Notes: generated by a model from the sequence alone, not told the origin. A stretch of DNA of 62,873 nt, filler included, from Hausera hauseri (GCA_046269625.1; 12 parts of 12 records of this genome joined end to end with filler, not necessarily neighbours in it); one strand, 5' to 3'. Positions 7,629 through 57,250 are shown, counted from the first letter of the whole stretch. Translations and numbers: made by a program.

Positions 7629-8180
7629 TCATTTTTTTTGGTGAATCACAGTTAAGCTCTTTTAGAATTTGATTTAATTCATCTTCACTAATCATTGCTC
7701 GACTTAAATTGTCTTAAAATTAAATAAAACTTTGTACAAACTGTCTTCTTCGATATGATGATAAAGCATTGTGGACTTTAATAATTTGTAAATTTCACCA
7801 ATTTTGGCTCTTCTTGGTTTCAGCTCGTAGCATTTCCCACAGGTCGACGATACGATAACATCGTTAAACGTATAATTCTCTTTATTGAAATCGTTATCGT
7901 TGTACATTTGAAAACTGGGAACAAACAACAAGGTATTCGATGTTTCCGTTTCTAGAATTTCATTATTGTTGGAATTTGTACGCAAAATGAAATCGTTGTT
8001 ATGAATAGATTTTATGTTGAATGATACAGACTTCGTGTTTTTAATGGAAGTCAAATAGGCCATAACGTCTTTATTTAGCGTAAAAATACTGTGTGTCTTT
8101 CTTAAAATCTTCACTAAATTTAGCATTGTGAATTGTTTTAAAAAATGCATTCTAAATAACAGTATTTCATTACTAAGCAT
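7629..8180 (-). CDS. DSCC1: DCC1 (CTF18-RFC subunit)-like protein, N-terminal part only; truncated or degenerate
   Basis: FILRTNS...ETETSNTLLFVP and YELKPRRAKIGEIYKLL resemble DCC1 AVLC...(A/E)xTSNxLLxxP and YxELRxxRPKLxKLxxLL. A putative next exon reads AMISEDELNQILKELNC and stops at 7629-7631. Confidence 0.6.
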
Positions 8181-13400: not shown

Positions 13401-14600
13401 TATATGCTTTTCGATGAACTGGTCATATTCCATGTTCAACAGTCTGTCCAAATTCGTCAAGGTCTCGTAATGGGCGTCCATCCAGGTTCCGACTTCTATA
13501 GATTACGTCCACATGAGAATTCTTGTAAATCTCTTTATCTGTCTGTATTTCTACGATTGTGTTGTAACGGAACATGTCAGTTGACAGTATCCGGTAAAGC
13601 CGTTCAAAAGTCGAAATGGTTTTCAGTTTCATCGGCATCCAACATTCATCAAAGTCCAATTCGAAAAAGTACTACCGATACTGATTTGGGAGATATGCAC
13701 TATGTCTATCCACTTGGTCATATTTTAACACGGACAGAATACTTTAAATGAAACAGTATTAGTCGTCAGTATTTTTTACATTCATTACCGCATAAGAGTG
13801 CTTTAGAGCTCTAGGTATCGGTATGAATGATCGCCCGGACAGGTAAATTATATCACTCAACTTTGTTATGATAAAGCCGAGGGTGACATTTCGTATAATT
13901 CTCCATCCACTACCCTTTTCGGTGTAGATGGCGATTTTTTCATCGAGCTTTTCGTCTACATCGGCAATAAAATCCTCAGAGTATGGTAGGGCTCGATGTG
14001 ACAGGTGCCATAATTTCCTGTCACCCTTCAGATTTTCAAATTCTGCAAGTGCATAATATTGTACTTTGCAGTGGTGTTGGTGATGTTGTTTGATTTTCTC
14101 CCCTTCGGATTCCAACTGGTTGCGCACATTTTGCGGAACATGTCTCAATTGTGGCACTGTTATTGTTTTCGCCATCAGATCGTACTTGTCTGTAATAGGC
14201 GGTTCCTGCTGCTGATCCTGCTGCTGCTGATGCTCTGTATTGCTTCTTTTCAGATATTCGTCAAAACTTGTTGATGCTTGACGTTTCATGCTTGTTGAGG
14301 GAATACAGCTTTTTGCCGCCTCCATTAATATTTATTTCTGGACATCTAAAACTGGTTCAAGTGGTCCTTGTGCTCATTATAAAATTGTTCATAGTTGATT
14401 TCATCATCAACTATTGAACAACCGGGACAAATACATGCCTGTTTACCATGAACCGTTGTGGCGCCATAGTATTGATCCATTTCACTATGGCAACCATCAA
14501 CGTCGTGCACTGTACTTGTACAGTACCGTGGGTACATTGGGCAATGCACTAGCATCATCTTCTTCGACCGTGTAAACGGTCCGAGATGATGCTTGTGCAT
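10439..14600 (-). pseudogene. Near full-length, frameshifted Polinton/Maverick (adintovirus-like) protein-primed DNA polymerase B
   Basis: Motifs in order: SGW, VMNVKNTDD, ExoI YADIEA, DHDH..G...C..CNL zinc/endoVII-like module, ExoII FHNFRGYD, RFLDS, ExoIII YLKLDVYLLADVF, RGG, motif A YIDINNLYG, motif B KNNSLYGKTVEN, motif C GDIDS, AKGI, LSCNDDKR. Many stops and frameshifts. Confidence 0.93.
11834..12281. mobile_element. ~448-bp solo-LTR-like insertion inside PolB
   Basis: An AT-rich insert splits YSIPAMSWA|SALMSL. It is flanked by 5-bp near-repeats gccga (11829-11833) and gccca (12282-12286). Termini are ta(ttgt)...(ac)caca, i.e. TG...CA with one change. Confidence 0.65.
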
Positions 14601-14928: not shown

Positions 14929-17900
14929 AATAATGATCAAACTGATCGAAGCGATAGGAATCGCAATAATAGGAATGAAAGACGATATAATAAGAATTAC
15001 AGAGATCGGAACAGGAATGATAATTATGACCGTAGGAACGATCGATATAATAATCAGAATTTTGGCCGAAACAGCCCATTTAGCAAATCAAACTATAATA
15101 CGGACAGACGCGTGGACGGTCCAAAGAACTTTAATAATGGAAGTCGTCAGAACGATAATCGGAATTATGATGATTGCCAATATGGAAACCCAAGACAGGC
15201 TCCACCGCAGCAAACTTACAATAAAAATCCGAGTAGATCTAAATCTTCATTAAATGAAGATGGCCGTCAAAGAGTTGGAAGAAATGGCAATTTAGTCTGT
15301 TTTACATGTAGACAAGAAGGACATATTGCGAGGTCCTGTCCGAATCCGCGAAGCGTCTCGTTTGTGGAACCCATCAAAACTAACGTAATTAGAAAAGAAA
15401 ATTTAGAAGCAATCTATGGCGTTCGTCGAGACAAGGCATGATCATCGAGATACAAGATTTACGACGTTTTTTGAAAAATAAGCCTGATACTGATGACCCC
15501 AAAGTTCTAGTGGCTAGAAACGAATATGAGCACAAATTACAACTAATGGAAGTCTATCATGGTCTACGCGAACCAGAAACAGAATATGAACGTTCCATCG
15601 CCCTCGCCAAGGCTTACGGATATGGCACGGAAGAAGAACCTTCATAGGACAAACAAAGAGTCAGACGAAATGGAAAAACCTGAGACTCCGGATAAAGTAA
15701 TTATAGAGGTAGGGCCCGAGCACACTATGAAAAAGAAGACTAAGGAAATAGACGTCGAAGAGAAGGAAGAATTCCTAGAGCCCCTCATACTTAAAATTAC
15801 TAAAAACAGAGGCCGTTGTCCCTCGTTGAGGCGAAAAAGCAACGATAGATCTCCCATGCGCAAGTCGAGCACAAAGGAAGAAGTCGAAAGCGCACTAGAA
15901 AGCGACATCGAGTGCGCCTCGAACTGTCCAGAAATTAGTTTAGCTACGCCTGGAGAAATAGAAGGACTGATGAAATTTGCGGTTGAAATAAACGATGTAT
16001 GTCCGATACCTACCAGTGAAGAGGAAACAAAACAAGAAGAGAAACTTGATCCTAAAAAGTGGAAAATTAGGCGCTCGTGGAAAAATGCCGAAGAGTTAAA
16101 AAGAATGAGGGAAAATTGTCACGACCCAGAGGTATTACAACAGAATTTAGAGAAACTCAAAGCGATGAGTGAACAAATGGATATTTCGGGAAAAGAACAG
16201 AAGTTTGTTGAGAGACTGTACAAAAAGATAAAACTGTATAGCGAAGGAAAGCTAAGCGAAGCCATAGATTTCGATCAACCCGATGAAGTTGCAAAAGAGA
16301 CGCTAGCAAAATGGAAAAGCGAATTAGAACGCTGGACGAAAGTTGAGACGAAAAACTTAGAGGTGTGAGATAAGACCACACAAGACATGGAAACTAAAGT
16401 TAATCAGGCTCAGTCGCTGTTAACAACATTAGAAGTAAACCCGAAATTAAAGCGAACGGTACGAAATTTAAAGCGTGTAATGGACGAAATTAGATTCATC
16501 ATAGTTGAGCAATTAAAAAAGAAACCGGTTAAAGAAAGGACCGAAACAGATTTGGAGGTGTTGGGTATAGATTCCATAGATATTCCACCTTTAATGGAAA
16601 TAATAAAAATTGTTTCTAATGCGACAAGGCAATATATTAGCTTGGAAAGTCGTATTAAACTCGAAGCCGAAAAGCGGTCGCAGATAAATAGTCTAAGGAA
16701 TAGGATTATGTACCCAAATAATGATGAAACACAGAGAATAATTATAGCTTGTATCCTCGAATTTGATGAGTATAAAGACGAGTTCGACTATGCCTGTCGG
16801 ATCATTGATTTCATCAAAGGCCCAGATGATGAACTAGAAGATGCCAATAAGATGTTAAACAAAGCAATATTAGCAAAGTTAGGCATCAAGAATCAAATGA
16901 ATGAGTGGTCTAAAGTAATAAAAAGGTTGAGTAAACTAACAAGTAGCCAGATGAGTGAATTTCCGCAAAGTGAATTTAGAAGAAAGAGGCAGTTGGAAGA
17001 AGACAACCGAAATTTAGATACAATAAAAGCAGAAATTGATATCCGAACGCAATTTAAGTCCCTGCGTTCGTTAGGATTCATGGACAAAAAACAAGAAATG
17101 ATGATACTTGAAGATATATATAAAATGATCGAAGAAACAAATTTTACACAAAAACGGAACCAGATGCATGGCGTTTACCCAAAATTAAGAAACGTCCGTC
17201 TAGAAGGAATTCAAAAATTGGACCCCAAGCCCATAAGAGAAATATCCGTATGTGACCTTAAGGCATTAGACGTTTGTCCTAGTCACCAATCGACCCTTGA
17301 AGAGATAGTGACATTTTTACATCAACCACAGCAAGGAATGCCTGGAATCGATTAGAGGTATCATACCGAATTAACTAAAATAAGAAATGAGCAAAATCTG
17401 GAATTTGAAGAAGCCAAGTTCATAAAAAGGCTACTGGATGAGATAGACCCCGACTCCCAAGTTATTAATGAGATGAACGAATTAGTACAATTGATGGTGG
17501 AAATGGCAGAAATCAGCGATGAGAAATTAAGACAGCTGCTGCCTCAGATACAACAAGTGGAAGAAACTAATATCAAAACCAAACAGAGAGAGTTGAGATT
17601 GAACGAACTAGCTAAAGAACTCGAACCGTATAAAGTTAAGTATGCTCTTACCGAAGCAGAGAAGGCTGACAAGTCGCAATTTATACAAAGGTGGCAACGA
17701 GACGTAGCTTCCGAGTTAACTAATTACCAGGAGAAAGGACTTATATCAGCCGAAAAATTATGCCAGCTGCTAACTGTACTACGCCGAACTTTAGGAAATG
17801 GGCGCTGTTTCCGACCCACCCAAATGGTTATAATGCAACAGAAGCTACGCGAACTTAGGACAACCGTAGAGACGACGGGTGCAAGGAAGTCGACTGACAC

Positions 17901-19236
17901 ACTACCGAGAAGTTATCCACTACAGGATAATGAGAATGAACCAGATTGGGAGTCATATCTAGATGCCATGATAGCCGAAAACTCGAAAACTCCAGTGCAC
18001 TTAAACGAAACGGAGATATGCTCGCCGGAACAGAAATTTTGTGTAGAAATGCTCTTAGACCCGGTGCAAACTGAAAAGGATCTATTTAGGTTGATCAATG
18101 TGAACCTCACGGAAAACCAATTAAGACGGTGGATTCCCACTTTAACCAAATTAGCTGGCGAAGGGACAGTTTACAATGCCGCGCCAAAACTTCCAATTAA
18201 AGAATATGCCAAATTTCTAAGGACCAGGCCCGAAGAGGGAATTAAAGTAAAGATAACGGCAGATTGGATGGATGAAAAGGAACAAGAGTTTACTACGCGT
18301 TCATCCGTGGAGAATGTATTACTATGGATAAAGAATAATGGTTATAACAAAGAGCTGAACTATAGGCTATACTTCAGAGGAAGAATGCTGGATGAATCGG
18401 AACTGTTGACACAGGTTTGAATCGTGCCTGACGAGGTGAACCGGTTTGTAGTAACTATCGCTAACGACGAGATAAAAGAAGAGGCTATAAGGAAGGCAAA
18501 GGCCGAACAGCCAGTAGGACGGATAATAGGAGTCCGAGACGCGGTAATGTATTTTGAGTACCTACAAACAGATGAAGATAATGAGCAATACGATAAGAGT
18601 TTAGTACCAATGAATGTTTGTATACATGTTGTAACGAAACAGAAACGACCTATTGGTAGGCCACGGAAAGTACGGGAAGAAATCGATTATAATGGAGACT
18701 TGATCAGAGAACTGAGGCATATGTCCATACCAACCTTCAGTGCAGATAATGAGGAACTGAATGAACTAATGAAAGAATTGATACGTATAGTAAACCGCTC
18801 CAGTTTGAACGACGATGTGTTAGATGAAAAAGAAAAGGTCATAATAAATGCCGCTAAGGCCATGAAAGGCCTCCGGTGTAAATTATCCAAAAGTACCTTA
18901 AGCGACGAAGCAACGATTGAGAAGATTATGGTGGAAAATACCTTAGAGGAATTGAGGAAAATGATGTTATATCTAGCCATTAAAACCAACCCGAATCGCG
19001 AAAACGAATTTAATAAGGCTACCAGTTTAGCAAGGAAGGCTGCCAGGAAAATACCTCGAGAAGTAAACTGGTCGAAGTTATTCGAAAAGGAAGAAGAACA
19101 TAAAAGAGAATTCTTCTTCGACAACAACAGGCTCGGTGACCTGCTACGAAATGTAACCAGAAACCGCAGAGGAAACGAATCGAATTGGCTAATCAACCTC
19201 TTGACCATTATGATGCTAATAAGGCAGATAGGCGCC
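14929..19236 (+). mobile_element. Internal region of a giant LTR-type retroelement, copy 1: N/D/R-rich Gag tail, CCHC knuckle and long non-pol polyprotein (mildly decayed)
   Basis: CFTCRQEGHIARSC knuckle. ORFs 15559-16368, 16387-17355, 17473-18420 and 18424-end share one frame. Their three stops are single-base changes relative to the contig-8 paralog (TGG>TGA, CAG>TAG, GGA>TGA). Confidence 0.8.
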
Positions 19237-19660
19237 NNNNNNNNNNNNNNNNNNNNNNNNNNNNNNNNNNNNNNNNNNNNTTAATTAATTAANNNNNNNN
19301 NNNNNNNNNNNNNNNNNNNNNNNNNNNNNNNNNNNNGCAACCTGGAAGTCAAGTTCGGCCATAGGGTAACTAATCTAGAACGAGTCAACGAGGCGAAGGA
19401 AGCTCTTCAGGTGAGTGACAACAAAGAGCTACTCAACTGTGGTGCCAACATTCACTCAGTCGGTGATCTGCATATACAACTTTTGATGTTAAAAAAATTG
19501 TTGTTTAAATAAATAAAAAGGATGATGAAATTTGAAAGTGGTTAATTTTATTCTCTTTTTAGCGAATTTTGGAGGTAATGTAAAGTTTTCTATTTTGGTA
19601 TCATAATTCTCGTAATTTTTGGACAATTTGAGCGATTATTAATCAAAATAAGAGTTTCAC

Positions 19661-20220
19661 ATGATTAGACGAAAACTAAAAAATGCCGTAAAGAATTTTA
19701 CTGAAACCGAAATTCTAGTCCGAGAAGCAACGTGCAATGATCCATGGTGTACAAGCAATACTCTTTTATCCAAAATTGTCGAAATGACAAACGATGATCT
19801 GAAAATTACCAAGATAATGCCGATAATTTGGAAACGATTGAAAGACACCGGTAAAAAGTGGCGCCATGTCTATAAATCTCTATTGCTAATGGAATTTCTT
19901 ATTCTTCGTGGCAATCAGTCAATTGCCGATCACTGTAGCCAAAACATACCGTTTTTGAAAACGCTCGAACAATTTCAGTACGTAGAAAAGAGCGAGGATA
20001 TTGGTGAACGAATCAGGCGGCGAGTTCAGTCCATAGTGAAATTGTTGAAGGACAGTGATTTGTTGAAGGAAGAACGGAAAAAAGGCTATTTTGACGGATA
20101 TGAAATTTTCATCGGAAATTGTATCACAAGGGTCGAATGTGCCGGTGAAATATGGTAATGGTGTTGGAACGTTGAGTCAGGGTCCATCGGTTGGCAGTTT
20201 TCGTAGTTCGTCTGATAAAG
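19661..20220 (+). CDS. Epsin-type ENTH-domain protein, first exon; apparent 1-nt frameshift at the A-run 20078-20083
   Basis: IRRKLKNAVKNFTETEILVREATCNDPW...IMPIIWKRLKDTGKKWRHVYKSLLLMEFL...FQYVE...G..IR...LL.D...LKEER is the classic ENTH pattern. Confidence 0.88.
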
Positions 20221-38700: not shown

Positions 38701-40406
38701 GACATCTGTTCCGGACATCGAGATACGCTAACAGACGCAATAAAATTCTTGCACAAACCACAAGAATGGATGACCGGATTAGACCAGAATTTCCATACCA
38801 AGTTGACAAAAATAAGAGACGACCCACATTTTAGCTTTCAGGAATACAAGTTCGTAAAGAAATTGCAATGGACCCCGACTCAAAAGTTATAAACGAGATG
38901 TACGAATTAGTCTCTATTGGTAGAAATGGCGGAGATTAGTGACGAGAGGATGAGGCAATTGATGCCCAAGTTACAGAAAGTAGAAGAAACATGTATTAAA
39001 ACAAAACAAAGAGCAACAAGGTTGGACGAACCAACGAAAGAGCTTGAAGTTTATCGGAACAAATATGCTTTTACTGAGTCAGAGATCAAAAATAAACGAG
39101 AATTTGTGCAAAGATGGCAAAGAGATGTAATTATTGAACTGATTATCACCAAAAGGGATTCATCGATTCTAATGAATTAAGCGAATTACTGAAAAAGATT
39201 GAGTATGCTTGTGGGAACGGAATAGGTTTCCGAACTACGCAAATGAAAGAAATGCAACCAAGATTGAAAGAAATTCGAGAAAATGTGCAAAAAACAAACA
39301 GCCCTAGTAGACTATGGACTTCCAGATATTGAAAACGAACCAGAATGGGATGCTTATTTAGAAGAAATAGTAGCCGAAAGCCCGGTGACTCCAGTACACC
39401 TCGATGAAATACAAACGTATCCGCAGAACAGGAAATTCAATGTAGAGATGATCCTAGACTCAGCATTAACCGAGAAGGACCTGATGGAATCAATTAAGGT
39501 GAATATGACTGAAAATAAGCTCAAACAACTTATTCCGACCTTGACTAAACTATCTCGCGAGAATACGATTTACAGCACGGTGCCGAAACTTCTGATAAAA
39601 AAGTATGCAGACATTTTGAAGACTAAACGCGAGGTAATGATGAAAATAATTATATCATCCGGGTGGATGTAAGAAAAATAATGTAAATTAACTACTCATT
39701 CCTACGTAAAGGACGTAAGAGAATGGTTACTAAATAATGCGGAACAAATGAGCTAAATTACAGATTTTACTTTATAGGAAGAATACTCGACGATTTAGAA
39801 CAACTAATAGACGTCGGAATCATACCTGGCGAAATAAATCGGATAGTAGTAATAATAGCCAATGAACAGACAAAGGAAGAAGCCACACGTAAAGCTAAAA
39901 CGGACCAATGTGTAGGACAAATCATGGGAGTACGAGATGCAGCAATGTACTTCGAATACTTACAGACGGATGAAGACAAAGAACAATATGAAAAGAATCT
40001 AGTACTGATAAGTGGAATGCCAGCCAATGCTCCGAGACCAAAACGCCCAGTCGGCAAACCTAGAAAGCCCCGAGAAGAAATTGACTATAATGGAGAACTG
40101 ATTAGAGAATTAAGACAAATGTCGATTTCTACTCTTAGTACAGATAATGAAGAATTAAGCGAGTTAATGAAAAATTTAATACGTATCGTAAATTATTCGA
40201 GTCTCCGTGGAGATACATTAGACGAGAAAGAAAAGGCAATATTTAACGCAGCTAGAACAATGAGAAGTTCGCGTGTCAAACTGTCAAAAAGTAGCCTAAC
40301 TGACGACGCAATAATCGAGAAGATCATGGTGGAGAATACGATAGAACAGCTGAGAAAAGTATTATTGTACTTGGCAATTAAGACAAATCCTAATCGAGAA
40401 AATGAA
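35754..40406 (+). mobile_element. Giant LTR-type retroelement, copy 2: Gag capsid, N/D/R-rich linker, CCHC knuckle and long non-pol polyprotein (more decayed)
   Basis: Capsid-like LPAYDGDPDRLNDFL...LYLKNLAADAY...W..L..AL...QQKGESVTQF...L (major-homology-like motif). Knuckle CFTCGKEGHIARSC at ~36757. Colinear with 14929-19007 throughout. Confidence 0.82.
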
Positions 40407-40506
40407 NNNNNNNNNNNNNNNNNNNNNNNNNNNNNNNNNNNNNNNNNNNNTTAATTAATTAANNNNNNNNNNNNNNNNNNNNNNNNNNNNNNNNNNNNNN
40501 NNNNNN

Positions 40507-43500
40507 ATTCGGTATATTATTCGTTTTGATATGTATCTCAAACGTGATACTTCTAATCGCATACATTCGTCCCAACTACCCCTCTATATCTCACTCCCAC
40601 GGGCCAAATTGAGTTTGATCTCGCCTCCAATTACAAGCACTACTATTCCACCTACAACTAAGACAGATATGCATTCGTTAATCACCAGGCCTATCACCTT
40701 TAAGGGTAGGGGAAAATCACAGAGTCAACATAAGACAATAATAATGAATCCGCACAAATCACAAAAATCACAGAACCAAGACAAGCCAACAACAGAGAGC
40801 CCACGCAAATCAAAAACAGAGAATCAACACAAGCCAGAAGGAAAACTTATACTAGAATTACAAGACAAAGATCAAAGAGTGTTGCAGAAGTCGAAGATAA
40901 ATAAACACATATTTTATGGGACACTCATGAAAGAGTTTCCGATGAAAGTCAGGTTAACACCATATGTAAATCGAATCGAAATTATACTTTCACAAAATTC
41001 AAATAACCAGAGTATCGTGATATCATGTACAGGTACTCATGAGAAGACCAGTTTTACTTATAATATGAACGAACGAAATTTTTGTGAAAAATTGACCCCA
41101 GACACGAACTACTTAGTGAACATAAAAACTCATGATAATTCAAAACTCCTGGCTATAAAGACTTTGCCTGCAACGGATAAATACAGAAACATACGCTATC
41201 ATGAGGAGGACGAAGAATGGCAGAAAACTACGCCTGCACCAATAATGACGGAAATATATTTTACGCAATATTGGTGGATATTCCTCATCTTGCTAGCATC
41301 GGGAATCATCATTGGATTGTTAGTTGTTTTTGGACATAAAGTTAACTGTAAGAAGAAGGAACCTTATGGATCTCAGTATTCGATAATTCGAAATAATGGA
41401 GCATACACCGTACAAGACCCATTATTTACTTTAATTGGTAAAACGGAAATAAATGAGAGACAAATTATGACCATCAATGAGGTCACAGTAGCTGATCCCA
41501 ATGAGAATACACAAAGTGTATTTTGTTTCATGCCAATTTTACTAATATGGATCAAAACAAATATGGACTTAAGTTATTTGCTAGAATTAGACACTATGTT
41601 TGTAGCTGTTGTCTTTACATTCGTAGGGCCAATCACATTGGCATATACAATCCACAAATTATTAGCCAATGAGGAGATTGTAAGCAAGAATCTTAGAAAC
41701 TTGATTAATTGGCCAATCAGATTCAACTTAATTGATTATAAAAGCAATATGCAACGTCAGAAAGTTGCACAAAAACTCATGTCAAAATACTTAAACAAAC
41801 ATGCTCCGGAATCCGGAAGCAGTCGAACAGTGAAGATAACCCCGAAATTCGGAGGAAAGGAAATTTTCAAAATTCCTGAAGGAATTCCAATACAGAAGTT
41901 GGAAGAAAAGAAGGTTATAGTTAAACTCAGTACAGCAGAAAATACTATGACCTATTCCTTTTACGACAAAATTCTGGCATATTTAGATTATTCAATGGAC
42001 AGGATTAATGAAGTTAACAGAATACCCAACAATTTGAAGTATGGCGAACAAAGAAACCGGGAAGTTCTCCCCTTCAAAATATTTAACTCAGAGACCACAT
42101 TCAGATTTCCAGCATGGACAGATGAGAACATCGGAATCACGGTACATCTAGCGATCGGAAAAGTTATGTTAATATTCAGAGGGCTAAAAGGACGCCAAAA
42201 CAGCTTAGAAACAATTAACGGACAGGAATCATACCAAATTAATTTTCAAGTAGATCCAAAGAATACTAGGATCATAGCCAAGGAACTAATGAACTTCGGT
42301 ATGATTGAAATTATAAGAAAGGAAAAACCAACACCGATTTTGCTACCGCTACGATACAAGATTGAACCTTCGGACAAAGATCTAATAGGAGAACCGAATA
42401 TTATGTACACAAATAAATCAGTAAGTATTAGATACCTAGCCATTTCATTTGCCTATGGAAAGAAATCGGATGGAACACAAGTCCCTCTACCAGTAGAAGT
42501 AGCAATTGCTGAGAAAAATGGAGAAATTATTTTTAACAGAATCATCGCTCCACGCAGGAATATTCATAACCTGAACAGCATCAGACACTCGATAAAATGG
42601 GAACAGATAGAGTCTGGAATAGACTCACATGAGGTACAAAGTGAGATAAAAAAGTATATACTTGGATTCAAGATAATTGCTCTGGAAGCTTATAAAACGT
42701 TTAAGGCGATGAAAATTCCTTTAAATTGGACCTGTGCTGTCTTCGACCCACTCAAATGCGCGGAAAATTCAATGGACAAGAGGATTAACACGATAAACCA
42801 AATGATACTGCACCTCAAGTTGAATAGATTTCCTAGCACTACTATTGGGAGATTGCAACTCACGATGGAGGCACATAAACAACTCATAGAAACTTATGAA
42901 TGGATGCCTCCTGACCTCCATAGCAATGTTACTGACGTTGGAGATATATTAAATAGAGAGGCTAAATACTTGGGCGAGCTGCAATGGAAATATGATGTTC
43001 AGGCAACCATACAAAAGGGATGCGAAGTGGAGACGATACAACAACAATTATCAAATGATGAAGAGGAATTCGAAGTAATGGAGTGTGAAATTCTCGAGCC
43101 AATGTTCAATGAAGAAAATGAAATTTTATCAAAGCAGGAAGAAAAGAAAGAATTAAAAAATACTTCCACACAAACCCACCAAATGAGTAGCAACGACTTA
43201 ATGAAAGCTTTATTGCATTCTCTAACAGAATCAACCTCAGAAAAAGCAAGAGTGAATGGGCTATTTCTAGCTATATTGGGTAATGGATTGTTAATTCCGA
43301 TAGTATTGGACGAGATCATCGAAGACAAGTACGTCTCATCTCAAATAGGTATCCGTCATAAACAAATCACCGATTGGGAATCGATCGGAAATCAACTGAT
43401 AGCAGCCCAGTACACCAAAATAGTAGAAGATAAGAAATTACTTATCCCATACAGAAAATTCTCAGATATAATAGAACTTCATATAGAAATGAATCCCGAG

Positions 43501-43986
43501 CGAGCATCAAATATTCCCGAATTTAAAAGCCAGGTGGTGGTCCCAGCACAAATAGTTACCAATTTGGTAGCAAGAAGCAGCGCTCACAAGTTAACAGGTC
43601 TATTAGCAGTTCGACAAAACAAAACTGTGTGGATCCCTATCAGAGACGTAGATACAGAAAACCATGATGACACCATTTATACCTGGTTTAAAGAAGACGA
43701 ATATGAATTTCATTTTGGAAGAACAAAAGAGACTTTACCATCACGGAAGAGAGCCAGAATAGAAGGAACACATACCGAAGAAGTTTTAGTGCGGATAAAA
43801 AACAAGTTGAGAGCGAAATCCTCAGATATACAGAAAGAGAAAGCCATTACTCCCAGTTCAGGAGATATTCGAGAAGTAAGTTTATTCAAGAAAGCAATTG
43901 AAAGAAATAATTCGATCAATGAGAAAGAAACCCAGGAGAAAACTGAAACAGAAAAGGGACTATCTACTAATTATGACACTATTTGA
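40507..43986 (+). CDS. 5'-truncated, otherwise intact >1150-aa membrane polyprotein: FN3-like domain, transmembrane helices, inactive DEDDh (REXO4/ISG20-like) exonuclease domain; probable env/accessory ORF of an LTR element
   Basis: Frame is open from the contig start and has no introns. LTPDTNYLVNIKT...IKTLP (FN3-like); YWWIFLILLASGIIIGLLVVFG (TM); YLAISFAYG...VEVAIAEKNGEIIFNRIIAP...SI..EQIE....EVQSEIKKYILG.KII (DEDDh pattern without catalytic D/E). Followed by a PPT and LTR. Confidence 0.75.
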   Translation: MRYIIRFDMYLKRDTSNRIHSSQLPLYISLPRAKLSLISPPITSTTIPPTTKTDMHSLITRPITFKGRGKSQSQHKTIIMNPHKSQKSQNQDKPTTESPRKSKTENQHKPEGKLILELQDKDQRVLQKSKINKHIFYGTLMKEFPMKVRLTPYVNRIEIILSQNSNNQSIVISCTGTHEKTSFTYNMNERNFCEKLTPDTNYLVNIKTHDNSKLLAIKTLPATDKYRNIRYHEEDEEWQKTTPAPIMTEIYFTQYWWIFLILLASGIIIGLLVVFGHKVNCKKKEPYGSQYSIIRNNGAYTVQDPLFTLIGKTEINERQIMTINEVTVADPNENTQSVFCFMPILLIWIKTNMDLSYLLELDTMFVAVVFTFVGPITLAYTIHKLLANEEIVSKNLRNLINWPIRFNLIDYKSNMQRQKVAQKLMSKYLNKHAPESGSSRTVKITPKFGGKEIFKIPEGIPIQKLEEKKVIVKLSTAENTMTYSFYDKILAYLDYSMDRINEVNRIPNNLKYGEQRNREVLPFKIFNSETTFRFPAWTDENIGITVHLAIGKVMLIFRGLKGRQNSLETINGQESYQINFQVDPKNTRIIAKELMNFGMIEIIRKEKPTPILLPLRYKIEPSDKDLIGEPNIMYTNKSVSIRYLAISFAYGKKSDGTQVPLPVEVAIAEKNGEIIFNRIIAPRRNIHNLNSIRHSIKWEQIESGIDSHEVQSEIKKYILGFKIIALEAYKTFKAMKIPLNWTCAVFDPLKCAENSMDKRINTINQMILHLKLNRFPSTTIGRLQLTMEAHKQLIETYEWMPPDLHSNVTDVGDILNREAKYLGELQWKYDVQATIQKGCEVETIQQQLSNDEEEFEVMECEILEPMFNEENEILSKQEEKKELKNTSTQTHQMSSNDLMKALLHSLTESTSEKARVNGLFLAILGNGLLIPIVLDEIIEDKYVSSQIGIRHKQITDWESIGNQLIAAQYTKIVEDKKLLIPYRKFSDIIELHIEMNPERASNIPEFKSQVVVPAQIVTNLVARSSAHKLTGLLAVRQNKTVWIPIRDVDTENHDDTIYTWFKEDEYEFHFGRTKETLPSRKRARIEGTHTEEVLVRIKNKLRAKSSDIQKEKAITPSSGDIREVSLFKKAIERNNSINEKETQEKTETEKGLSTNYDTI

Positions 43987-44141
43987 CATTTGTATTCTGA
44001 CAAAACTCTATACATATTGTGATTATCTTCTGCTTACTTAATGTATTCCTTCCTTTTTATTTTTTAGACGCGTATGTACAGTTTTTATTCGCGTGTATTA
44101 TTCTTATTAATTAATTAAAATTATCATTATAACACTTGTTT

Positions 44142-44580
44142 AAGGGTAAGGGAATGTTAGTAATTAACTATTTTATAAATGATAGTAATTGACTATTTTA
44201 TAAATGAAGAAATTCTGTAAATAAATTTTAATAAATTTTATAAATAAGAAATAACTAAATAACATAACTCTGAAGGATAATGAATTAACGCCAATTGATT
44301 AATAGTAACTAAAATCAGTAGTCTTGTTTTAATCAGCTATTTCACACACTGTCTCAGATCATGCTCGGCCTTGTGTCTGATTGGTCTGAGATAGTTATAT
44401 AAACCAACGCTAAATTCATTCAATTCGAACATTTTTTCCCGGTAATCCGGAGAAGCTAAAACTTATATACTGTCCAGTGCAAGTTATAAGTTGAATTGTA
44501 GCTAGTAACTTATATACTGTCTAGTGCAAGTTATAAGTAAAATTCAAGTTATCTAAAAGATAAGACAGAACGTCATTATA
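44142..44580 (+). mobile_element. Polypurine tract and 3' LTR (right boundary approximate)
   Basis: AAGGGTAAGGGAA (44142-44154) is immediately followed by TGTTAG. Internal ~25-bp tandem duplication at 44158-44208, TATATAAA at ~44396, and ~31-bp direct repeats at 44461 and 44508. Confidence 0.6.
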
Positions 44581-46140
44581 TACTGAAATTTGGTAATATT
44601 GAATTGGAACTGTTTTTGTTATTGATATTTTTTATATACCCACCTTAAAAAAGCCTTTGTAAATACTTTTGTTTCTGTTCCAATGCAGAAATATTTTTAA
44701 AAAATGCATTTATGATGGATTGATTGTATACACATTTTCTCTCATTTATTTCCTAATATAACAGCCTGCCTCCGCCGCCATAATCGTCATGGTAAAACAC
44801 GATACGTTTTTCCAATCTTCTTAATGTCAGGCAACCCTTAAGCTCATGATAATCCGAGACAGTTCTTTCCCGGCGTTTGGTATTAAACATAAAAGTAAGT
44901 CACGAGGTAAGATGTTGCATAGTAACACCAGTAATCCTTATTGAAATTATGTAGTTTTTTCAAAGAGATGAGTTAATTTTAAACAATTTCAACTTAACTT
45001 ATTCGTAGTTTCAGTATTACGCAGATAACGAGCTCTCCCCCAAAAATATTATCTGGGTACGCCACTGAATGTAAGTCGTATTTCAAATATTCACGAATAA
45101 TGTATCTTTCCAGCTTTAGAAATATAGCAGCCGAAAAAAAAAAATCACAAATTTAAGAAACTACCCTATCTTTCTTCGCCTTGCACTCTGAGATTTGAAA
45201 ACTGATGCATGATGAAATCAGAATAAAATTATCCAAATTATACTATTCAAAATCATTACAAACATAGACTGCACTTCCCAAAGCAAATATTGGGGATGGT
45301 AATTTGAATTAGGAAATGATTTTTGATTCGTCATATAACAGTCATATATATAAAAAAAATCAGTCTGTTGTTAATGTTTTAACTCCTTCACTGAGTGGTT
45401 AACTCTTCGGGATGAGCCATGAAAAGGGCTGTTATAGCCTTAAGAAGGGCTAGTGGAGCGTGTAGCTGAGCTTTCCTGCTGTCCCGGCGGTGTCTAGGAG
45501 GTGCTCCAGGTGGTAGTGCAATGCTTGACCTCCTAGAAATGATCCAACACTCAATCGGGGACAAGCTCGAGGCTCTGCCATTTGCCACAGCCTAAAAACA
45601 ATATGTGGTAGATTATCAATGTTGTAACCCTGACTTAACTCAGGTCTTGAAGCCTGGACATGATCCAAATAAAAAAATAATCTGGGAAACACTGGTCCAA
45701 GGTCAGGTGTACACCACAACTGTACACTGACTGATGTCCGNNNNNNNNNNNNNNNNNNNNNNNNNNNNNNNNNNNNNNNNNNNNTTAATTAATTAANNNN
45801 NNNNNNNNNNNNNNNNNNNNNNNNNNNNNNNNNNNNNNNNTACTGAAAAAGTGCCGAACATCCTAATTGTCGTTCAAAAATAGTTTCATATTAATTTGAA
45901 AAATCTCAAAACTCACTAGATGTAATAAGCTGCTCAAATAATTCATAATTTTGAAAGTCCTGATACTGTAATTTTCATTTTAATTTTACATTTTTAAAAA
46001 GTATATTCAAATTATTTCAATCATTTGCCATTACAACGCAAATCAAACCGTAAAATTACACTACCATTTTAATCCATCTAACCAAATTAAAGGTGCAATA
46101 TTACAGAAACAAATTCCTAATAAATAAGATTATTCCAAAC

Positions 46141-46724
46141 CTGCCGGTAATATCGCCTGCGTAAAATATCTCGACCATTATCCAATCTATCGGAAACAGC
46201 AGCACCATATAACTCCAAACTAGCAGTATACACAACCAATTCATACCACTGACTAACCTAATCAACATCATTATTAATGCGAAAAATGATAAATAACAAA
46301 CAATATCGAGAAAATAATCAACATGCGGCCGTTTGTATACAAAAAATCGGACAGGATGACGGTCAATTTCAACCCTTAAAACAAAATCTGGTGGAGTTCC
46401 AGGTTTGACTGTTGGTCGTACCATTCCATCTAATACTGAATGGATTAATGTTTCATCAAGATCTAGAACTAATATTTTCCTCCGAACGGCACCTCAATTT
46501 AAACTTTACACTACAAAACAAATGCATTTATTGAAATACTTAATCTGTACCGGGAAACTGGAGAAAGTGGCACAATTTCATATTTTATACACTGATAATG
46601 AGCAGCCTACTATTCAAATTACCAATGTAAAAATTTTGAAAACCGTAAATACCTTACGATAAACCCGATTATATTCTGCAAATAAGAAATTATATAATTT
46701 AACGGTCGATATAAAAATTTCCAT
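46141..46724 (-). CDS. CTDNEP1: CTD nuclear envelope phosphatase 1 (Dullard), 5' exons
   Basis: Exons 46540-46606, 46302-46492 and 46141-46257 splice in frame to [33 protein letters not shown]...PGTPPDF...[27 protein letters not shown]...RRYYRQ (HAD DxDxT motif). Introns are 47 and 44 nt. Confidence 0.95.
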
Positions 46725-47392: not shown

Positions 47393-49008
47393 ATGGTAGG
47401 CGATAGGGACGTCTTAAAACGTCCTTCATTGTATGTATGTATACACCATAATAATTTATATTTGTATTTGTTTTGTAGGAATTTAATGTTTAAATTTTTA
47501 AAATTCAATAAGTCTACAAATATGGATCCTGACGTCTGGAAAGAAGTAAGCCCTAACTACACTGCATTAAGATGTAGCTTCACCGGGGATACAGGCATCA
47601 ATAGAGCTTACGGACTCACACCTGAATCTACTCCAATGGATATTGTTAGTGCATTTATTTCTCGACAGGTATTTCAAATTATGACACTTGAAACGAACAG
47701 ATATGCTTAAAAATGCATGTCGTCAAATGTTTTAAAAAGCATAGCAAAGTTCAGTGTTGGGAAGTCACAAACACAAGTGAAGTGAAGAAATTTTTGGGTT
47801 TGGTCAAAAAGACATCCACTGGTCCACAGACCCAATACTTGCAATGCCTGTTGTCAACAGTACCGGTTTTGAGTTCTGACAGTTTTGAGTTGTTGAAGTT
47901 TTGGCACTTGGCTGTTGATGGAAACAGGCTGCACAAATTGAAATTGATTTGTGACACATTGCTTGCGGCATTCCAAAATGTGTATTATCCCAGCAAACAG
48001 GTACGAATTGATAAAGCTACGGTTCTGTGGCGTGGAAAGCTTGTATTTAAGCAGTACATTCCTGGAAAAAGACACAAATATAGAGTCAAGCTGTATTTGT
48101 TGTGTGAACTAAGTGGCTATATGTCGAATGTAATGGTTAACTGAGGAAAGTCTGGCTTAGTTTCAGGATTGGATCATTCCGAGGCAGTAGTTATAAAGCT
48201 GATGAATAATTTGAATAAGCTGATGTATAAAGGCCATGAACTTTATGTGGACAATTTCTACACCGGTGTTCCATTGGCTCAAGAACTGTTGAAGCGCAAA
48301 AACGCAGTTACGTGGAACACTTCGTAAAAACAGAAAACACTTGCCATCGGCAATTGTATCTGCAAAACTGCAGAAAGGACGTTGTGTAAGCCGATGCAAT
48401 GGTCCAGTAGTTGTGGTCAAGAGGAGAGACAACAGAGACGTTGGGATTCTGTCTACTTGCCACACAGGTAGGCTGATGTCATGGCGCAAATCAAATTATC
48501 TAGATGAACAAGTCCAGAAACCATATGCCATATTGGATTACAACATGAACATATGTGACGTAGACCACACAGATCAGCTGACATCATACTATTCATCACT
48601 TCGCCAGTCACTGCTTTGGTACAAAAAATCGTTCTGCATTTCCTGGACATGGCCATGACCAATGCCTACCTGCTGCACAAGAAGCTTCGTGGCAATCGAC
48701 AGCAGGTATGGTTTGGAACACAGGTGATACGTCAACTGTTGATATCAGATAACCATCCACCAAAACTGTCACCAGGGACATTATTTCGCCATCACAAGTT
48801 TTCGAATATGTCACGATTGAGCGGACAGCACTTCATCAGTGAAATTCCATCTCTGACTTATAAAGCAAAAACAATGCGCAAATGCGTCGTCTGAAGGAAA
48901 CAAGGTCGGCGCAAGGAGAGGAGATATTTGTGTGAGACTTGTATACTCAGACCGGCATTGTGTGTGACACCTTGCTTCAAAGTTTATCACACAGTCGAGG
49001 ATCACTAG
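47393..49008 (+). pseudogene. piggyBac (PGBD4-like) transposase pseudogene
   Basis: ETNRYA, IDKATVLWRGKLVFKQYIPGKRHKY, LYVDNFYT, GTLRKNR, YNMNICDVDHTDQ, and a C-terminal Cys-rich RKCVV...YLCETC...ALCVTPCFKVYH. Confidence 0.92.
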
Positions 49009-50167: not shown

Positions 50168-52273
50168 TTACAATGCTACATGTCGGTCAGGTAGTGTATG
50201 AATTCCATCACCCAGAATCTTGTGCTTGTTGTACATCCAATCTAGGCTTTTCTTATGCAGTGTTCCTGTTTCGTTGTTATGATCTCTAGATTGGATCATT
50301 CGCATTTCTGAAATAATGTGAGTCTGCACATGCAGAACTCTCACATAGTCCTCAAAACTGATCTTCTTGGACAATGTAGCCCTTTGAACGTCCTTGACTC
50401 ATTCGCGTACATCTTAAATCTGAGAGCTACAAATCTCGAGATAACTGCTCCATTCACTTCGTCTTTAAATTTCCCAAGGACTTTCTTATTGGCAATTGAA
50501 TAGTTGGGATGACCATTTGGATAGTCCGAGGTATCCATGTGTTTAGTCAATTGGGCAAAGTCCTCATAAATATCATTTGTATGGATCTCATAGATACAAC
50601 TATCAGTATTCATGTACATCAGCTGCATGTATTTGAACTTGGGGACCGTGATGTCATAATGAAAACTGTACATCAAGGTCGTTGATAGATCCAATATTGC
50701 CATATTCACATATATGGGTTTATTGAATACAACTGCTGTTTTCAGTATATGAATGTCTACTAAGTTCTCAATATATATGGTGCTGCTATGGAAGTTATGC
50801 TTGGCAATAAACTTCTTTGGCCTCTTCCATTCATGTACTAGCTCAATGTTGATTTTGTTGCGGATATTCTCCATGGTCTTGCCGAAAACGCTGTTATTAT
50901 ATAGCTTGAATTGGTCTTTCTCAAAGTCGTTCTTGGCATTAGTCCGCAGCTTCGTATTGAGATTTGTGCATGACTGCAGCCACATGGACTGGCTGAACTG
51001 CATGGCTCTATGGATCTTAGTAATACGAAATACATGTCTAACTGCCCGCCGGAGATTGATGTAGTGAACTACATAACTCTCCCTATTACCCACATTACAG
51101 AGCAGCTTTTCTGCATTCCATGGGGCGGAGGCTTGCTCTCAGGATAGAACCTGGATATTCCATATCTACTCCTGTATGTATCCGGTATCTCCAGTGAGAT
51201 CCAGGTCCAATATGGGGATGTTTTCAGAATTCTCGACCCATTTGAAGTTATTATATCGCAATCAGAAAGGATATTGTAAAAGTCCTTGTAGTTCGGCAAT
51301 AAGGTCTCATCCAGTGTTTCCCATGAGGTTATTGAGTCATAGGGAAACACGCATTTCCTTTTAACCAGGTCAGAGGTAGTGAGGAAGAACCGTTTCGTCT
51401 CCTTGAGTTCTTCTTCAAGGAGGTTCTTCACTAAACTGTCCAGTGACGAGCTCATGAAGCGGAAGCCATCAATGAAGCGAAGTCTGATGCGGCCCACATG
51501 CTTCGTAAATGTGATATACTTCTCCTCATTGTTTGGAACCACATCAATATTAAAATCAATGTTGCTTAATTCTCGGACAATGAAGTGGGAATCATAGACA
51601 CTGAGATTATAGAACACTATAGGCACATACGTGCATGTTTTGCAACGAAGATTGCAGTTTTTGCATACCTCGCTACGATATGCACCTGTAAAATGGCAGT
51701 GATCCTTTACTTTATAATTTTCCTTGGTGAAGGACTTGTCGCACAAGTAACATGATGTTGCCTTGATCAATTATTCTTGTTTTCACGACATGCTCATTGT
51801 ATTATTATGTTGCTGAAGCATGTTTTCAAGCTTATGAGCCATGTCTTCAAGTCGTTTCATGAAATGTGCTGCTGCCTCTGGACCTCTGAATAGAAATGGT
51901 TCACTGTCCAGTCCTTTGGCATACATACAAATAGCATATTAGTATGCCGTTATGCTGCTATGTTGAGGATTGGGAGTACAACTCTGAACTGGCCGGAGAA
52001 TAGCTTCAAAATCGCAATAGATAACTATTGGGACCTTGATCTTCTTCTCGAACTGTTTGAATTCAATTTTGTCCTCCTTGGGAAATTCTGGTCTTACACA
52101 GTAATTGTTGTTGCAGTACATTTTGTGCTAGGCAAGCTTGTCCACTGCTGAATCACCACTGAAATGAGACAGGCATCGCTTACATATTTCTATTTGTCCA
52201 TGATAATTCATAATTTGGGATCTGACTAGACGTTCAAAGATCTTAATCCAAACATAATGTTTCTTTTCCCCAT
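50168..52273 (-). pseudogene. Polinton/Maverick pPolB (copy 3), close relative of copy 2, with an internal deletion and cut by an LTR element
   Basis: YCDFEA, KDHCHFTGAYR, FYNLSVYDSHF, FIDGFRFM, VFPYD, then a deletion at ~51250 removing ExoIII to motif A, then KLYNNSVFGKTMEN, YMNTDS, LGKFKDE. Obvious nucleotide similarity to 32500-33165. Confidence 0.93.
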
Positions 52274-53980: not shown

Positions 53981-55503
53981 ATTCTTCATGCTGCAGAATC
54001 ACAGGTAGCAGGGCTGATTGCACGGGCTGTGACCTTAGCTGGGTGCCATCTGATTTGCCCACAAACATAACCGAACTAATTCTAACAGCCAACTTCATTA
54101 GTAGTCATGCTCTATATCCTCGAGTGTTTGCAAATTATGCACAATTGACTGTTCTATATCTTGACTCAAACAGCATTACACATCTGACTGAAGGTATGTT
54201 CGAAGGGCTAGAGAATTTGAAAACCCTCAACCTGTATAATAACAGCATTAGTTTGAACTATGATCTCAATGAATCTAATGTATTTTCACCTCTAAGTGAT
54301 TGTTTGGAGATTCTCGTTATGAACAAGAACACCGACGATGTTTATTACGAGTCATTAATGTATCCAGATCAGGCACTTTCTGTTTTGAAACATCTGACTC
54401 AACTACATATTGACGGCTTGAAACACAGAATCTTTGGCAAAGGTTTTAATAATCTCACAAATTTAACATACTTGTCGCTAGCCGGTTACCCCGATGGCTA
54501 TTGTAATATGATTTCTATCACTAATTACACGTTTGAGCATTTAATGCATCTCACATACCTGAACATATCTAGCTGTAATCTCATAGGATCGAAAACTCAA
54601 GCAGATGCCTTTCACCGCCAGAGAAAACTGGAGATTTTAGATGTTTCAAACAATACCAATCTTGGTATCGAAGCTGTCGGAAACTTTATGTACGGATTAA
54701 GAAATAACACAAATCTTATACGTTTAAAAATGCAGAGAATAGTCAAACGATTCACTCCGTGTGTTGTGATCTATAATTACACACTACGATACTTCGGACA
54801 AACGGGTCTGAAAGTAATTGAGGCAATGAACAATGAAATTGAGATGATCGAGGCAGGGGCATTAGAGATGCTACCAAAGACGCTCACAGAAGTTAACATC
54901 ACGAACAATAGGATCATGTTTGGAGCTTATTGGGAAGATATGGCATCCTTAACAGGACTAAAGATGTTACATCTTGATGGCTATCTCACTCCTGAAAAGT
55001 TTCCTCTCTTTTTTCCGTCCAAAAATCTGCATTGCCCGTCTCCGGGAACAGAAAGTGACAGTGATGTTGCAACAGAGAAAAATGACAAGAAATGTATCTG
55101 TGGGCCAGGTACGTGTTTATCAGAAAAGGAGGAATTTACACTGCCCTTACCGCCTAATCTAATAAATTTTACCATGCATGGTAATTCGCTTGCTTATAAT
55201 GTCAATAATATCAGATTTTGTCCCACGAACAACCTGACAAGTGTTGACCTGACGGGAAACATGTTTCAACGGCTTGAAGGGCCAATCGTCGGACTTAACA
55301 AAATCCAGTACTTGAATTTATCAAGTTGTTTTATACAAACGATCGAAGATAACTTTTTTGACAACCTCACAAGTTTAGTTCATCTCAACTTATTTCAGAA
55401 CTTGCTAGGTGACCGTGTCAACAATGATACAGAGGGAAATATTTTTGACAAACTCAGTAATTTGAAATATTTGAATGTTTCGTTCAAAATTACCTTCCTA
55501 TAG
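53981..55503 (+). CDS. Toll-like-receptor-type leucine-rich-repeat ectodomain fragment (both ends missing)
   Basis: LRRNT-like CCRITGSRADCTGCDLSWVPSDLPTNITEL. Many LxxLxLxxN repeats (LTVLYLDSNSI, LKTLNLYNNSI, LVHLNLFQNLL) and many N-glycosylation sites. Intronless. No LRRCT, TM or TIR before the stop. Confidence 0.8.
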
Positions 55504-56315: not shown

Positions 56316-57250
56316 TCAATTAATTCGTCGGATCAATTGCTTTTTCCACTGAATTTTCTGCATTGTCGTCCGGGGAGTAATCATAAATTCCTGCTTTAGG
56401 GAATCCATTTTTAATGCATTTAATAGATATTTCATCCAAACTTTCTTTGATCCAATTGCAAATTTCACTATAATTCGCTCTTTTTTGTGTTCCATCTTTA
56501 GTAAAGTATTCATTCCTTCGGACATCCATTCTTTCCATTGTTCTTTAAGTTTAGGTTTGAAAGAACAATTGAGAGTTAGATCCAGAAGTTGAAGTTTTCT
56601 GGTTAAACATCCAGGAATTATCGCCAATTTTGAATACAACCTTTTCTCTTTTTTTACTCCTTCCGTGATGTGATTTGTGGTAGAGTCCCAAATTAGAAGT
56701 GATTTTGCTTTACTCGTAAGTAATGCATTTTTTCGAGCGCCCCAGACATCGCTGAACTATTCTTTTATTATGGTTTGATTGATCCAATTTTTTCCCTTGA
56801 CTTTTGCAACAATTCCTTTAGAAAACACCTTTTGGCATTGTTTTCCTCTTAAAGATGACGAGTGGCGCACATTTAATTTTTCGTGACAAGTTGGTGATAT
56901 TTTCACGTCTTGTGCCATTTTTGACCACTGTATGGCGACCAACCATATCGAAACTAATAGGAACTTCGTCCATATTTTCTATTTGTTGAGAAACTATTCC
57001 TCATTTATTAGTTTCGACAGACTGTTTAAATAAAACCATCTTTACTTCCTAGTGGGCAGGAAGTTTCTGTCCAACTGACGTGACTGCACGAACCGAAAAT
57101 CCATGTCTTTTTATAAATCGATCTCATCATTGGTCACTACCTTTGAAATTAGTGATTTTCAGTTCTTCTGCTATTTCTTTCGACTTTCTTTTGATACACA
57201 TCATTTTCAACATATTCTACTATTTCTAACTTTCTTGCACTCATAATTTT
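56316..57250 (-). pseudogene. pogo/Tigger-type (DDE_1) transposase pseudogene
   Basis: NMDEVPISFD, LLIWDSTTNH and IIPGCLTRKLQLLDLTLNCSFKPKLKEQWKEWM, across broken frames. Confidence 0.85.

Follow-up and report, generated by a model that had tools for sequence, protein, structure and literature searches.

A candidate accessory gene with a degenerate DEDDh nuclease fold at the 3′ end of a putative LTR retroelement from Hausera hauseri

We analyzed a 62,873-nucleotide (nt) stretch of DNA from Hausera hauseri (GCA_046269625.1; hereafter, the window), in which the contig at positions 40507–45740 (5,234 bp) very probably represents the 3′ end of an invertebrate long terminal repeat (LTR) retroelement carrying a long open reading frame (ORF) as cargo. 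The ORF encodes a DEDDh-type nuclease domain that is almost certainly catalytically dead, preceded by a probable cupin-like domain and by predicted transmembrane (TM) segments. As an overall reading, we propose that the ORF supplies the element with a membrane-tethered, non-catalytic RNA-binding module as accessory cargo, a proposal to which we give an even chance. The window consists of 12 contigs of approximately 4–9 kb each, separated by 11 identical 100-nt spacers. Because these spacers artificially join separate contigs, adjacency across them carries no meaning. A preliminary description of the ORF had contrasted it with mostly decayed neighboring transposable elements, but the decayed elements sit on other contigs and are thus not its neighbors.

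The ORF and its domains

No stop codon was found in 1,159 codons of the ORF, and the other two forward frames over the same region contained 103 and 82 stops. The probability of zero stops by chance, calculated from base composition, was approximately 2e-38. The ORF had an A content of 39% and contained no intron across 3.5 kb. Because the frame was already open at the first codon of the contig, beside an artificial spacer, the contig includes neither the start codon nor a possible signal peptide. The preliminary description of an intact, A-rich ORF of more than 1,150 residues was therefore right in length and composition but not in intactness, as the 5′ end is cut off and the main contig of one public sequencing run (X1, described below) carries a frameshift. 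Residues are numbered from position 40510. The domains were arranged in the order of a Thr/Pro tract, a K/Q/S/T linker, a beta unit, a TM helix, two hydrophobic segments, a globular middle, an acidic linker, a C-terminal domain, and a charged tail. Pfam yielded no family for the whole ORF, sequence searches of Pfam, PHROG, NCBIfam, and PDB with the ORF or its parts gave no significant match, and none of 7,578 candidates from a word search with the whole ORF was related to it.

The structure of the globular middle was modeled with AlphaFold2 from a five-sequence alignment comprising the ORF and the four distant relatives described below. The mean pLDDT of the model was 55.8, and values of 60–89 were obtained across most of the nuclease. 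The nuclease model was superimposed on ISG20 (1wlj) with a Z score of 16.5 and an rmsd of 2.8 over 153 aligned residues, and Foldseek matched it to ISG20L2 at an E value of 1.5e-7. The family profile also matched ISG20L2 (E 1.6e-22), and ESM features of residues 630–810 fell into RNase_T clusters at 0.91–0.92. These results agree with the REXO4/ISG20-like domain that had been noticed at approximately 42430–42890. All five DEDDh positions were replaced (S646, A648, T730, S776, and R781), which bears out the earlier remark that the ExoI motif had become SxA and that the ExoII and ExoIII acids were gone. Judged by its sequence, the ORF domain is a pseudo-enzyme of the DEDDh fold and not an active member. 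Its net charge was +6, compared with −1, −2, and +2 in three relatives that keep the catalytic residues.

Ahead of the nuclease, residues 43–145 of the model resembled the small cupins 6b8w and 1y9q (Z 8.8, rmsd 2.7–2.8, 87–88 aligned residues). Foldseek matched this barrel to 3d82 at an E value of 1.6e-3 and to a viral cupin at 2.6e-4. In the putative region of the first cupin motif, one His and one Gly were the only residues invariant in the five sequences. A cupin-like fold is thus probable from the model, at a confidence reduced because the pLDDT of this region was low (about 50). A single weak 2OG-oxygenase match (E 2.4e-3) was also obtained for the barrel, and an AlkB-type enzyme was not adopted.

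A phmmer search against 1.84 billion representatives found no close relative of the ORF and three distant matches, all over residues 471–800. A profile search added a fourth, giving P0001, P0002, P0003, and P0006, with 21–28% identity to the ORF. A profile built from these four alone scored ORF residues 477–863 at 63.8 bits. Because their homology to the ORF begins at residue 477, approximately 160 residues ahead of the nuclease and over the cupin-like fold common to all four, the conserved unit is a cupin-like plus DEDDh module. P0001 and P0002 exceeded the Pfam RNase_T cut-off, and P0001, P0002, and P0006 kept all five catalytic residues. P0003 had no first Asp, and its sequence stops before ExoII. 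P0003 was the best BLAST partner of the ORF, yet a shared dead clade of the two was not adopted, as the five-sequence tree did not separate the groupings (support 52/29). Searches of viral contigs with the ORF, an alignment designated A1, P0002, P0006, and the gag protein found no relative.

P0001, the only relative with DNA in reach, was found at two loci that were 99.8% identical. Its gene (L002, 1940–3550) lies 257 nt downstream of an ORF (L002, 3–1682) in which a retropepsin domain (PF13650, above the cut-off) continues in frame into a membrane protein. This membrane protein has two hydrophobic segments, a Cys-rich part, and a Thr-rich stalk, and is separate from the nuclease ORF. The position of P0001 behind a retropepsin ORF thus ties the cupin–DEDDh family to retroelements, and the gene order there, membrane gene followed by nuclease gene, is that of the ORF. 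No reverse transcriptase was seen behind the retropepsin–membrane ORF. L002 is possibly a non-autonomous retroelement of unusual layout.

In the N-terminal half, a model of the region corresponding to residues 142–220 was built from the single sequence and contained a seven-stranded beta-sandwich (best pLDDT 59.9; 32–37 for the other four models). The preliminary description had called this an FN3-like unit. The sandwich was recovered, whereas its assignment to FN3 met divided evidence: ESM features of residues 120–300 placed FNDC9/FNDC5 (FN3 plus TM) on top at 0.85–0.86, which is a lead only, and three fold searches returned jelly-roll sandwiches at Z 7–8.8, with no FN3 among the 50 matches listed and no PF00041 match. 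SIDT1/2 ectodomain, GOLD, and subtilase P-domain were tied as top matches of the sandwich (Z 8–8.8) and were given no weight. From the model, the sandwich likely adjoins a TM helix, which was found where it had been described (Kyte–Doolittle values up to 2.9). The second hydrophobic block of the preliminary description was also present and was corrected to two segments, 41515–41571 (residues 336–354, Kyte–Doolittle 1.4) and 41578–41652 (residues 357–381, 2.0). A test of the visible part for a fusogen found no Pfam or PDB match and no combination of cleavage site, fusion peptide, and coiled coil.

Retroelement setting and differences among copies

Copies of the contig were compared in public sequencing runs of three organisms (X1, X2, and X3), which contained 0.70, 0.37, and 0.06 of its words, respectively; no RNA run was present among the public runs listed as containing such words. 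Depth was taken as the summed depth of run contigs aligned at 82% likeness, which is not copy number, and ratios alone were used; in X1, about 30 copies at low coverage are indistinguishable from one copy at high coverage. As had been described, a polypurine tract (PPT) followed by TG was found 155 nt after the stop codon. The depth over the LTR-like stretch at 44182–44531 was 1628–1640 in X1 and 85–102 in X2, and that over the nuclease part was 93–132 and 3.2–5.2, respectively, with patchy coverage in X3. The LTR-like stretch was thus approximately 12–30 times deeper than the nuclease part. Repeat-level depth was still present at 44613 and gone by 44707. These ratios indicate an LTR-like repeat whose outer boundary is sharp, and the sequence past the PPT accordingly behaves as the dispersed repeat expected from its earlier reading as an LTR. 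The putative LTR holds internal duplications of 25 and 45 nt, and no complement of its start was found; CA candidates for its end lie at 44574 and 44641.

The first 700 nt of the contig (40507–41206) were also deep in X1 (534–1475), indicating that the linker and sandwich are common to many more family members than the nuclease. Depth in X1 was raised to 407–672 over 41907–42256, at the start of the cupin-like region, compared with about 100 on either side; more diverged copies therefore share that stretch. Near the 5′ end of the contig, a second occurrence of the 3′ purine tract, together with the three bases preceding it, was recognized retrospectively. Two matches to the pattern are present in the window, where 0.07 would be expected on average by chance, and none arose in 300 codon shuffles; other 16–17-mer pairs at 94% are also present in the contig. 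From its sequence, the internal tract may be a vestige of a former element terminus or a central PPT, as described for Ty1, HIV, and EVADE (PMC7197481).

The copies differed in whether the two halves of the ORF share a frame. Position 41558 lies inside an A-rich run, and in copies without this base the upstream frame ends at 41570–41572, leaving the membrane and nuclease halves in different frames. For the downstream half of such copies, ATG codons are available at 41547 and 41563, as read from the three frames of the window. The continuous frame was kept in the window, in X2, and in 15 of 99 depth units of X1. X2 had the form of the window at 41558, 41607, 42334, 43032, and 43581, where the main contig of X1 differs, and at 42769 both X1 and X2 differ from the window. 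Because X2 sides with the window at 41558 and at four of the five single-base sites at which the X1 main contig departs at full depth, the fused frame is no assembly artifact; the fused form is present in more than one organism and is not universal. The agreement at five of the six informative places suggests that the split is the younger state in X1. X1 contigs also appear to skip 357 nt (41162–41520) and 84 nt (41172–41257), both multiples of three; the longer skip would remove the first TM helix. X1 additionally contains a subfamily at 89% identity to the copy in the window. In the linker, other copies in the run contigs carry an in-frame 6-nt deletion at 40851.

Proposed role and alternative explanations

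In the explanation that we favor, the stretch between the upstream part of the element and the PPT and LTR would hold two captured units as a cassette, namely a single-pass membrane protein and a cupin-like/DEDDh module. In this lineage, both units would have been joined in one frame, and the nuclease would have lost its five catalytic residues. According to the positive-inside rule, the basic side of a TM helix is cytoplasmic. The sandwich would then be luminal and the tail after helix 1 cytoplasmic, and the possible hairpin at residues 336–381 would bring the chain back to the cytoplasm. In split copies, anchoring of the module would fall to the final hydrophobic segment alone, so that the cupin-pseudonuclease would be cytoplasmic either way, a position that appears to fit the pattern of hydrophobicity and charge. 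The segments at 41515–41652 would tether the module to the cytoplasmic face of the membrane. The basic, dead nuclease fold would bind RNA 3′ ends without cutting them, as in the Maelstrom MAEL domain, and, while particles assemble, the module would hold element RNA or shield it from silencing and decay by the host. It might work as one chain, as a protease-cut product, or as a protein restarted at an ATG near 41547–41563. The frame and fold are kept at 21–28% identity while five catalytic residues are lost, which points to a binding role and suggests that selection continued after catalysis was lost. By analogy, an RNA-binding role of the dead fold would fall slightly short of an even chance. 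Topology, RNA binding, benefit to the element, and the link to gag-pol are the parts that we infer.

Several observations weigh against this explanation. The structural model draws on five sequences; as three of these are active enzymes, it may be pulled toward the canonical fold, and the Z score of 8.8 for the poorly modeled cupin region is close to what common arrangements score. Each of the four relatives is a separate protein of 333–536 residues that starts near the cupin-like domain, a profile search for longer, fused forms found 0 of 4,406, which is weak evidence, and no PPT or LTR was recognised downstream of P0001. The contig itself holds no gag or pol, a second LTR and a target-site duplication are not visible within it, and neither is a signal peptide for the sandwich domain, the 5′ end being cut off. 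The split in the main contig of X1 shows that fusion is not needed for the existence or spread of that copy type. Finally, among the 40 of 170 differences listed, 9 of 20 ORF substitutions were synonymous and 11 changed an amino acid, a share that does not clearly point to purifying selection at present.

The alternative with the strongest claim, which we rate clearly below even but as a serious candidate, is that the ORF is an in-frame C-terminal extension of Pol or Gag-Pol, cut by a protease into a membrane piece, the pseudonuclease, and the C-terminal domain, as in Burro-like elements that place accessory domains inside one polyprotein (PMC6431247). The frame open at the contig edge, the internal PPT copy at 40699–40714, which would be an old pol end or a central PPT, the first 700 nt at 5–14 times the depth of the nuclease part in X1 and near LTR depth, and the two gag-plus-CCHC contigs with very long, broken frames in the same assembly all fit such an extension. 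Residues 1–26 may resemble the tail of a gypsy integrase; Pfam, PDB, and PHROG searches of residues 1–70 were empty. The PPT copy was spotted post hoc among other 94% 16–17-mer pairs, the ubiquitin-like and BCL2-like readings of the gag contigs had no match, and nothing connects those contigs to the contig of the ORF. This alternative is compatible with the cassette explanation. A less probable account, to which we would give perhaps half the weight of an even chance, holds that two separate working proteins are encoded, with the cupin-pseudonuclease translated from a start of its own and anchored by its N terminus, apart from the membrane protein; the continuous frame would then be incidental, and no receptor-like chain would exist. 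It draws on the frame split at 41558 in the X1 main contig (84 of 99 depth units) with its two downstream ATGs, on the stand-alone state of all four relatives, and on the separate membrane and nuclease ORFs of L002; the continuous frame in the window, X2, and 15 of the 99 units of X1, together with the apparent youth of the split, speaks for fusion. Because the X1 main contig splits the halves, the relatives stand alone, and no fused relative was found, the single receptor-like chain proposed in the preliminary description is weakened, whereas its dead DEDDh domain, LTR setting, and fit to a cytoplasmic pseudo-nuclease were retained.

The remaining alternatives carry less weight. If the domain were decaying cargo whose active site eroded once selection relaxed and that is now functionless, which we regard as improbable, the X1 frameshift, the 11 of 20 amino-acid changes, the want of close relatives, and the report that rotifer ORF3s evolve approximately neutrally within genomes (PMC5408684) would be expected; however, 1,159 stop-free codons and the persistence of the fold at an identity of about 22% to relatives are not compatible with neutral drift, and two of the three listed ORF indels keep the frame. 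An env or entry protein, in which the sandwich and TM helix serve surface attachment or fusion during particle exit and entry, is very unlikely. Its position ahead of the PPT and LTR, the sandwich, stalk, TM helix, and single sequon would suit this function, and domain III of a nematode endogenous retrovirus class II fusogen has FN3 topology beside a stem and TM segment (10.1101/2021.11.23.469668), but the 120 residues ahead of the sandwich are low-complexity and not fusogen domains, only two Cys precede the TM helix, the one RxxR just past the sandwich is followed by no fusion peptide, and the ORF matches no Pfam family. Least probable, to the point of being nearly dismissed, is a single-copy host gene for a receptor with a pseudo-REXO domain beside a solo LTR. 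The nuclease-part depth of 3–5 in X2, near that of the flank (0–3.3) and perhaps reflecting one or two copies, would agree with it; against it, phmmer, Pfam, and word searches found no orthologue, the ORF is intronless over 3.5 kb whereas a host gene of the window is apparently split by short introns, a solo LTR would not retain a PPT, several diverged copies cover the ORF in X1, and one relative lies behind a retropepsin.

Other features of the window and comparison with known systems

The features of the contig are summarized in Table 1. The probable cupin-like domain, the internal purine tract, and the C-terminal domain were absent from the preliminary description. Phmmer, Pfam, and other sequence searches gave no significant match for the C-terminal domain, and Rfam gave no match on the contig. 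A separate repeat of very high depth (X1 64,091) occupies 45407–45740 on the minus strand without a Pfam match; it is probably the 3′ end of a LINE.

Table 1. Features on and beside the ORF contig, in window coordinates
Feature	Position	Strand	Basis
Artificial 100-nt spacer, not biological	40407–40506		One of 11 identical spacers in the window
Stop-free ORF, 1,159 codons, 5′ end cut by contig edge, TGA at 43984–43986	40507–43986	+	Frame analysis
N-terminal 67 residues: short stretch, then Thr/Pro-rich tract (residues 39–67)	40510–40710	+	Sequence
Internal copy of 3′ purine tract (15/16 bases), possible central or relic PPT	40699–40714	+	Match count, codon shuffles
Degenerate tandem repeats encoding K/Q/S/T linker	40713–40862	+	Repeat analysis
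Predicted seven-stranded beta-sandwich, residues 142–220, one N-glycosylation sequon (N166)	40933–41169	+	Predicted structure
Predicted TM helix 1, residues 254–275, then lysine-rich patch	41269–41334	+	Hydrophobicity
Second and third hydrophobic segments, which may form a hairpin; ATG at 41547 (other frame) and 41563	41515–41652	+	Hydrophobicity
One-base length difference between copies	41558	+	Depth without the base: X1 84/99, X2 0/3.75
Probable cupin-like double-stranded beta-helix, residues 503–605	42016–42324	+	Z 8.8, rmsd 2.7, 87 aligned; Foldseek; alignment
ISG20/REXO-type DEDDh fold, residues 639–803, net charge +6	42424–42918	+	Structure, profile, alignment
Replaced catalytic positions	42445, 42451, 42697, 42835, 42850	+	Alignment with relatives
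Acidic linker, net charge −12	42967–43179	+	Charge count
C-terminal domain, residues 895–1075, one hydrophobic segment (43252–43323)	43192–43734	+	Hydrophobicity
PPT, 13 nt with one T, abutting TG at 44155	44142–44154	+	Sequence
Putative 3′ LTR, end CA at 44574–5 or 44641–2	44155–44642	+	Depth, CA sites, duplications
Low-depth flank outside element	44707–45231		Depth: X1 1.6–11, X2 0–3.3, X3 0–3.9

On other contigs, two gag copies about 65% alike were found at 14929–19236 and 35638–40406 (Retrotrans_gag, E 5e-4; CCHC knuckle). Downstream of each gag, over 1,000 helical-looking codons without any domain match are broken by stops and, in the second copy, also by frame changes. Their layout recalls Burro polyproteins, and at the end of the first lie a basic site and a signal-peptide-like hydrophobic stretch; ubiquitin-like and BCL2-like domains were tried for these contigs and found no matches. 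Broken remnants of Polinton-type protein-primed DNA polymerase B and endonuclease VII were present on three contigs (12224–14331, 32296–34260, and 50341–52237), and piggyBac-like (DDE_Tnp_1_7) and DDE_1 transposase remnants at 47692–48655 and 56319–56756. An intronless leucine-rich-repeat ORF resembling a Toll ectodomain (53981–55503) ends in a stop, with no TM segment or TIR in the next 1.3 kb, and an intronless ORF of 497 codons (29673–31166) encodes a RING finger at the N terminus and another cluster rich in Cys. Pieces of host genes at 2151–3882, 7704–8216, 19652–20158, and 46101–46493 encode a PRKCSH/OS9-like lectin, Dcc1, an ENTH protein, and a NIF phosphatase with apparently short introns, indicating an AT-rich animal genome.

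Captured exonucleases have a precedent in bdelloid rotifers, whose LTR retrotransposons Juno and Vesta encode RNase D-like DEDDy exonucleases in ORF3, with function untested (PMC5408684). The likeness lies in a DnaQ-like 3′–5′ exonuclease captured in the 3′ accessory region of an invertebrate LTR element. The rotifer enzymes are DEDDy with intact catalytic residues (DEED) and no TM segment or coiled coil (PMC5408684), whereas the ORF domain is DEDDh with all five residues lost, has a cupin-like domain ahead of it, and shares its frame with hydrophobic segments and a beta-sandwich. As the relatives carry the ExoIII His, the best matches are DEDDh, and TM segments are present, the ORF is not a member of the rotifer type. 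The precedent cited in the preliminary description thus holds for rotifers with these differences; PMC5408684 does not mention nematodes, which the description had also named, as carriers, and no paper supporting the nematode case was found. The cellular ISG20, ISG20L2, REXO4, and SDN1 are the best structural and profile matches to the nuclease domain, but they are soluble, active, 11–19% identical, and without a cupin or membrane part.

Burro/GYPSM1, giant gypsy-like elements of planarians, carry captured domains as separate ORFs or polyprotein parts (PMC6431247). They share with the ORF long A-rich frames, several captured domains, and tandem repeats; compared by description only, Burro is credited with neither a DEDD nor a cupin nor an FN3 domain in the text, which places env between gag and pol (PMC6431247). 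In Retand elements, additional ORFs are located between pol and the 3′ LTR (PMC11963269). In orchids, Gypsy elements carry an ORF for an AlkB (2-ODD) protein, an active demethylase with a proposed counter-defence role (PMC9289625). There, too, a beta-helix-type, RNA-acting domain was captured by a large gypsy element, but as its own ORF, whereas the barrel described here is a better match to small cupins and is joined to a nuclease fold. The Maelstrom MAEL domain, a DEDD fold lacking the catalytic residues, binds single-stranded RNA (PMC4408791) and serves as the model for the role proposed here. MAEL is a host silencing factor with an ECHC zinc site, whereas no ECHC motif was seen in the ORF, and it is structurally further from the ORF nuclease (Z 9.3) than ISG20 (Z 16.5). 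Arenavirus ExoN exemplifies viruses that turn a DEDD-type fold against host defence (PMC7968707).

No publication was found that joins cupin, DEDDh, and retrotransposon, or an LTR retrotransposon with an FN3 extra ORF; an earlier annotation in repeat databases is possible. The ORF probably adds to the known LTR accessory genes one whose cupin-like plus DEDDh module had not been annotated before and is dead and membrane-linked here. In a more specific version, which we regard as unlikely, the cupin–DEDDh module would be an undescribed family whose member here, a pseudonuclease joined to a receptor-like protein, acts as an inner RNA decoy that blunts silencing and decay, with copies fused or split through position 41558.

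Few factors by which transposons counter their silencing in animals are known, and accessory genes of LTR retrotransposons are the likeliest source of them. Long retention of a DEDDh fold without its catalytic residues would mean that an element selects a non-catalytic role for it, which would mirror the host's use of Maelstrom. As both active and dead versions of the module exist, they may be compared directly in RNA-binding and nuclease assays.

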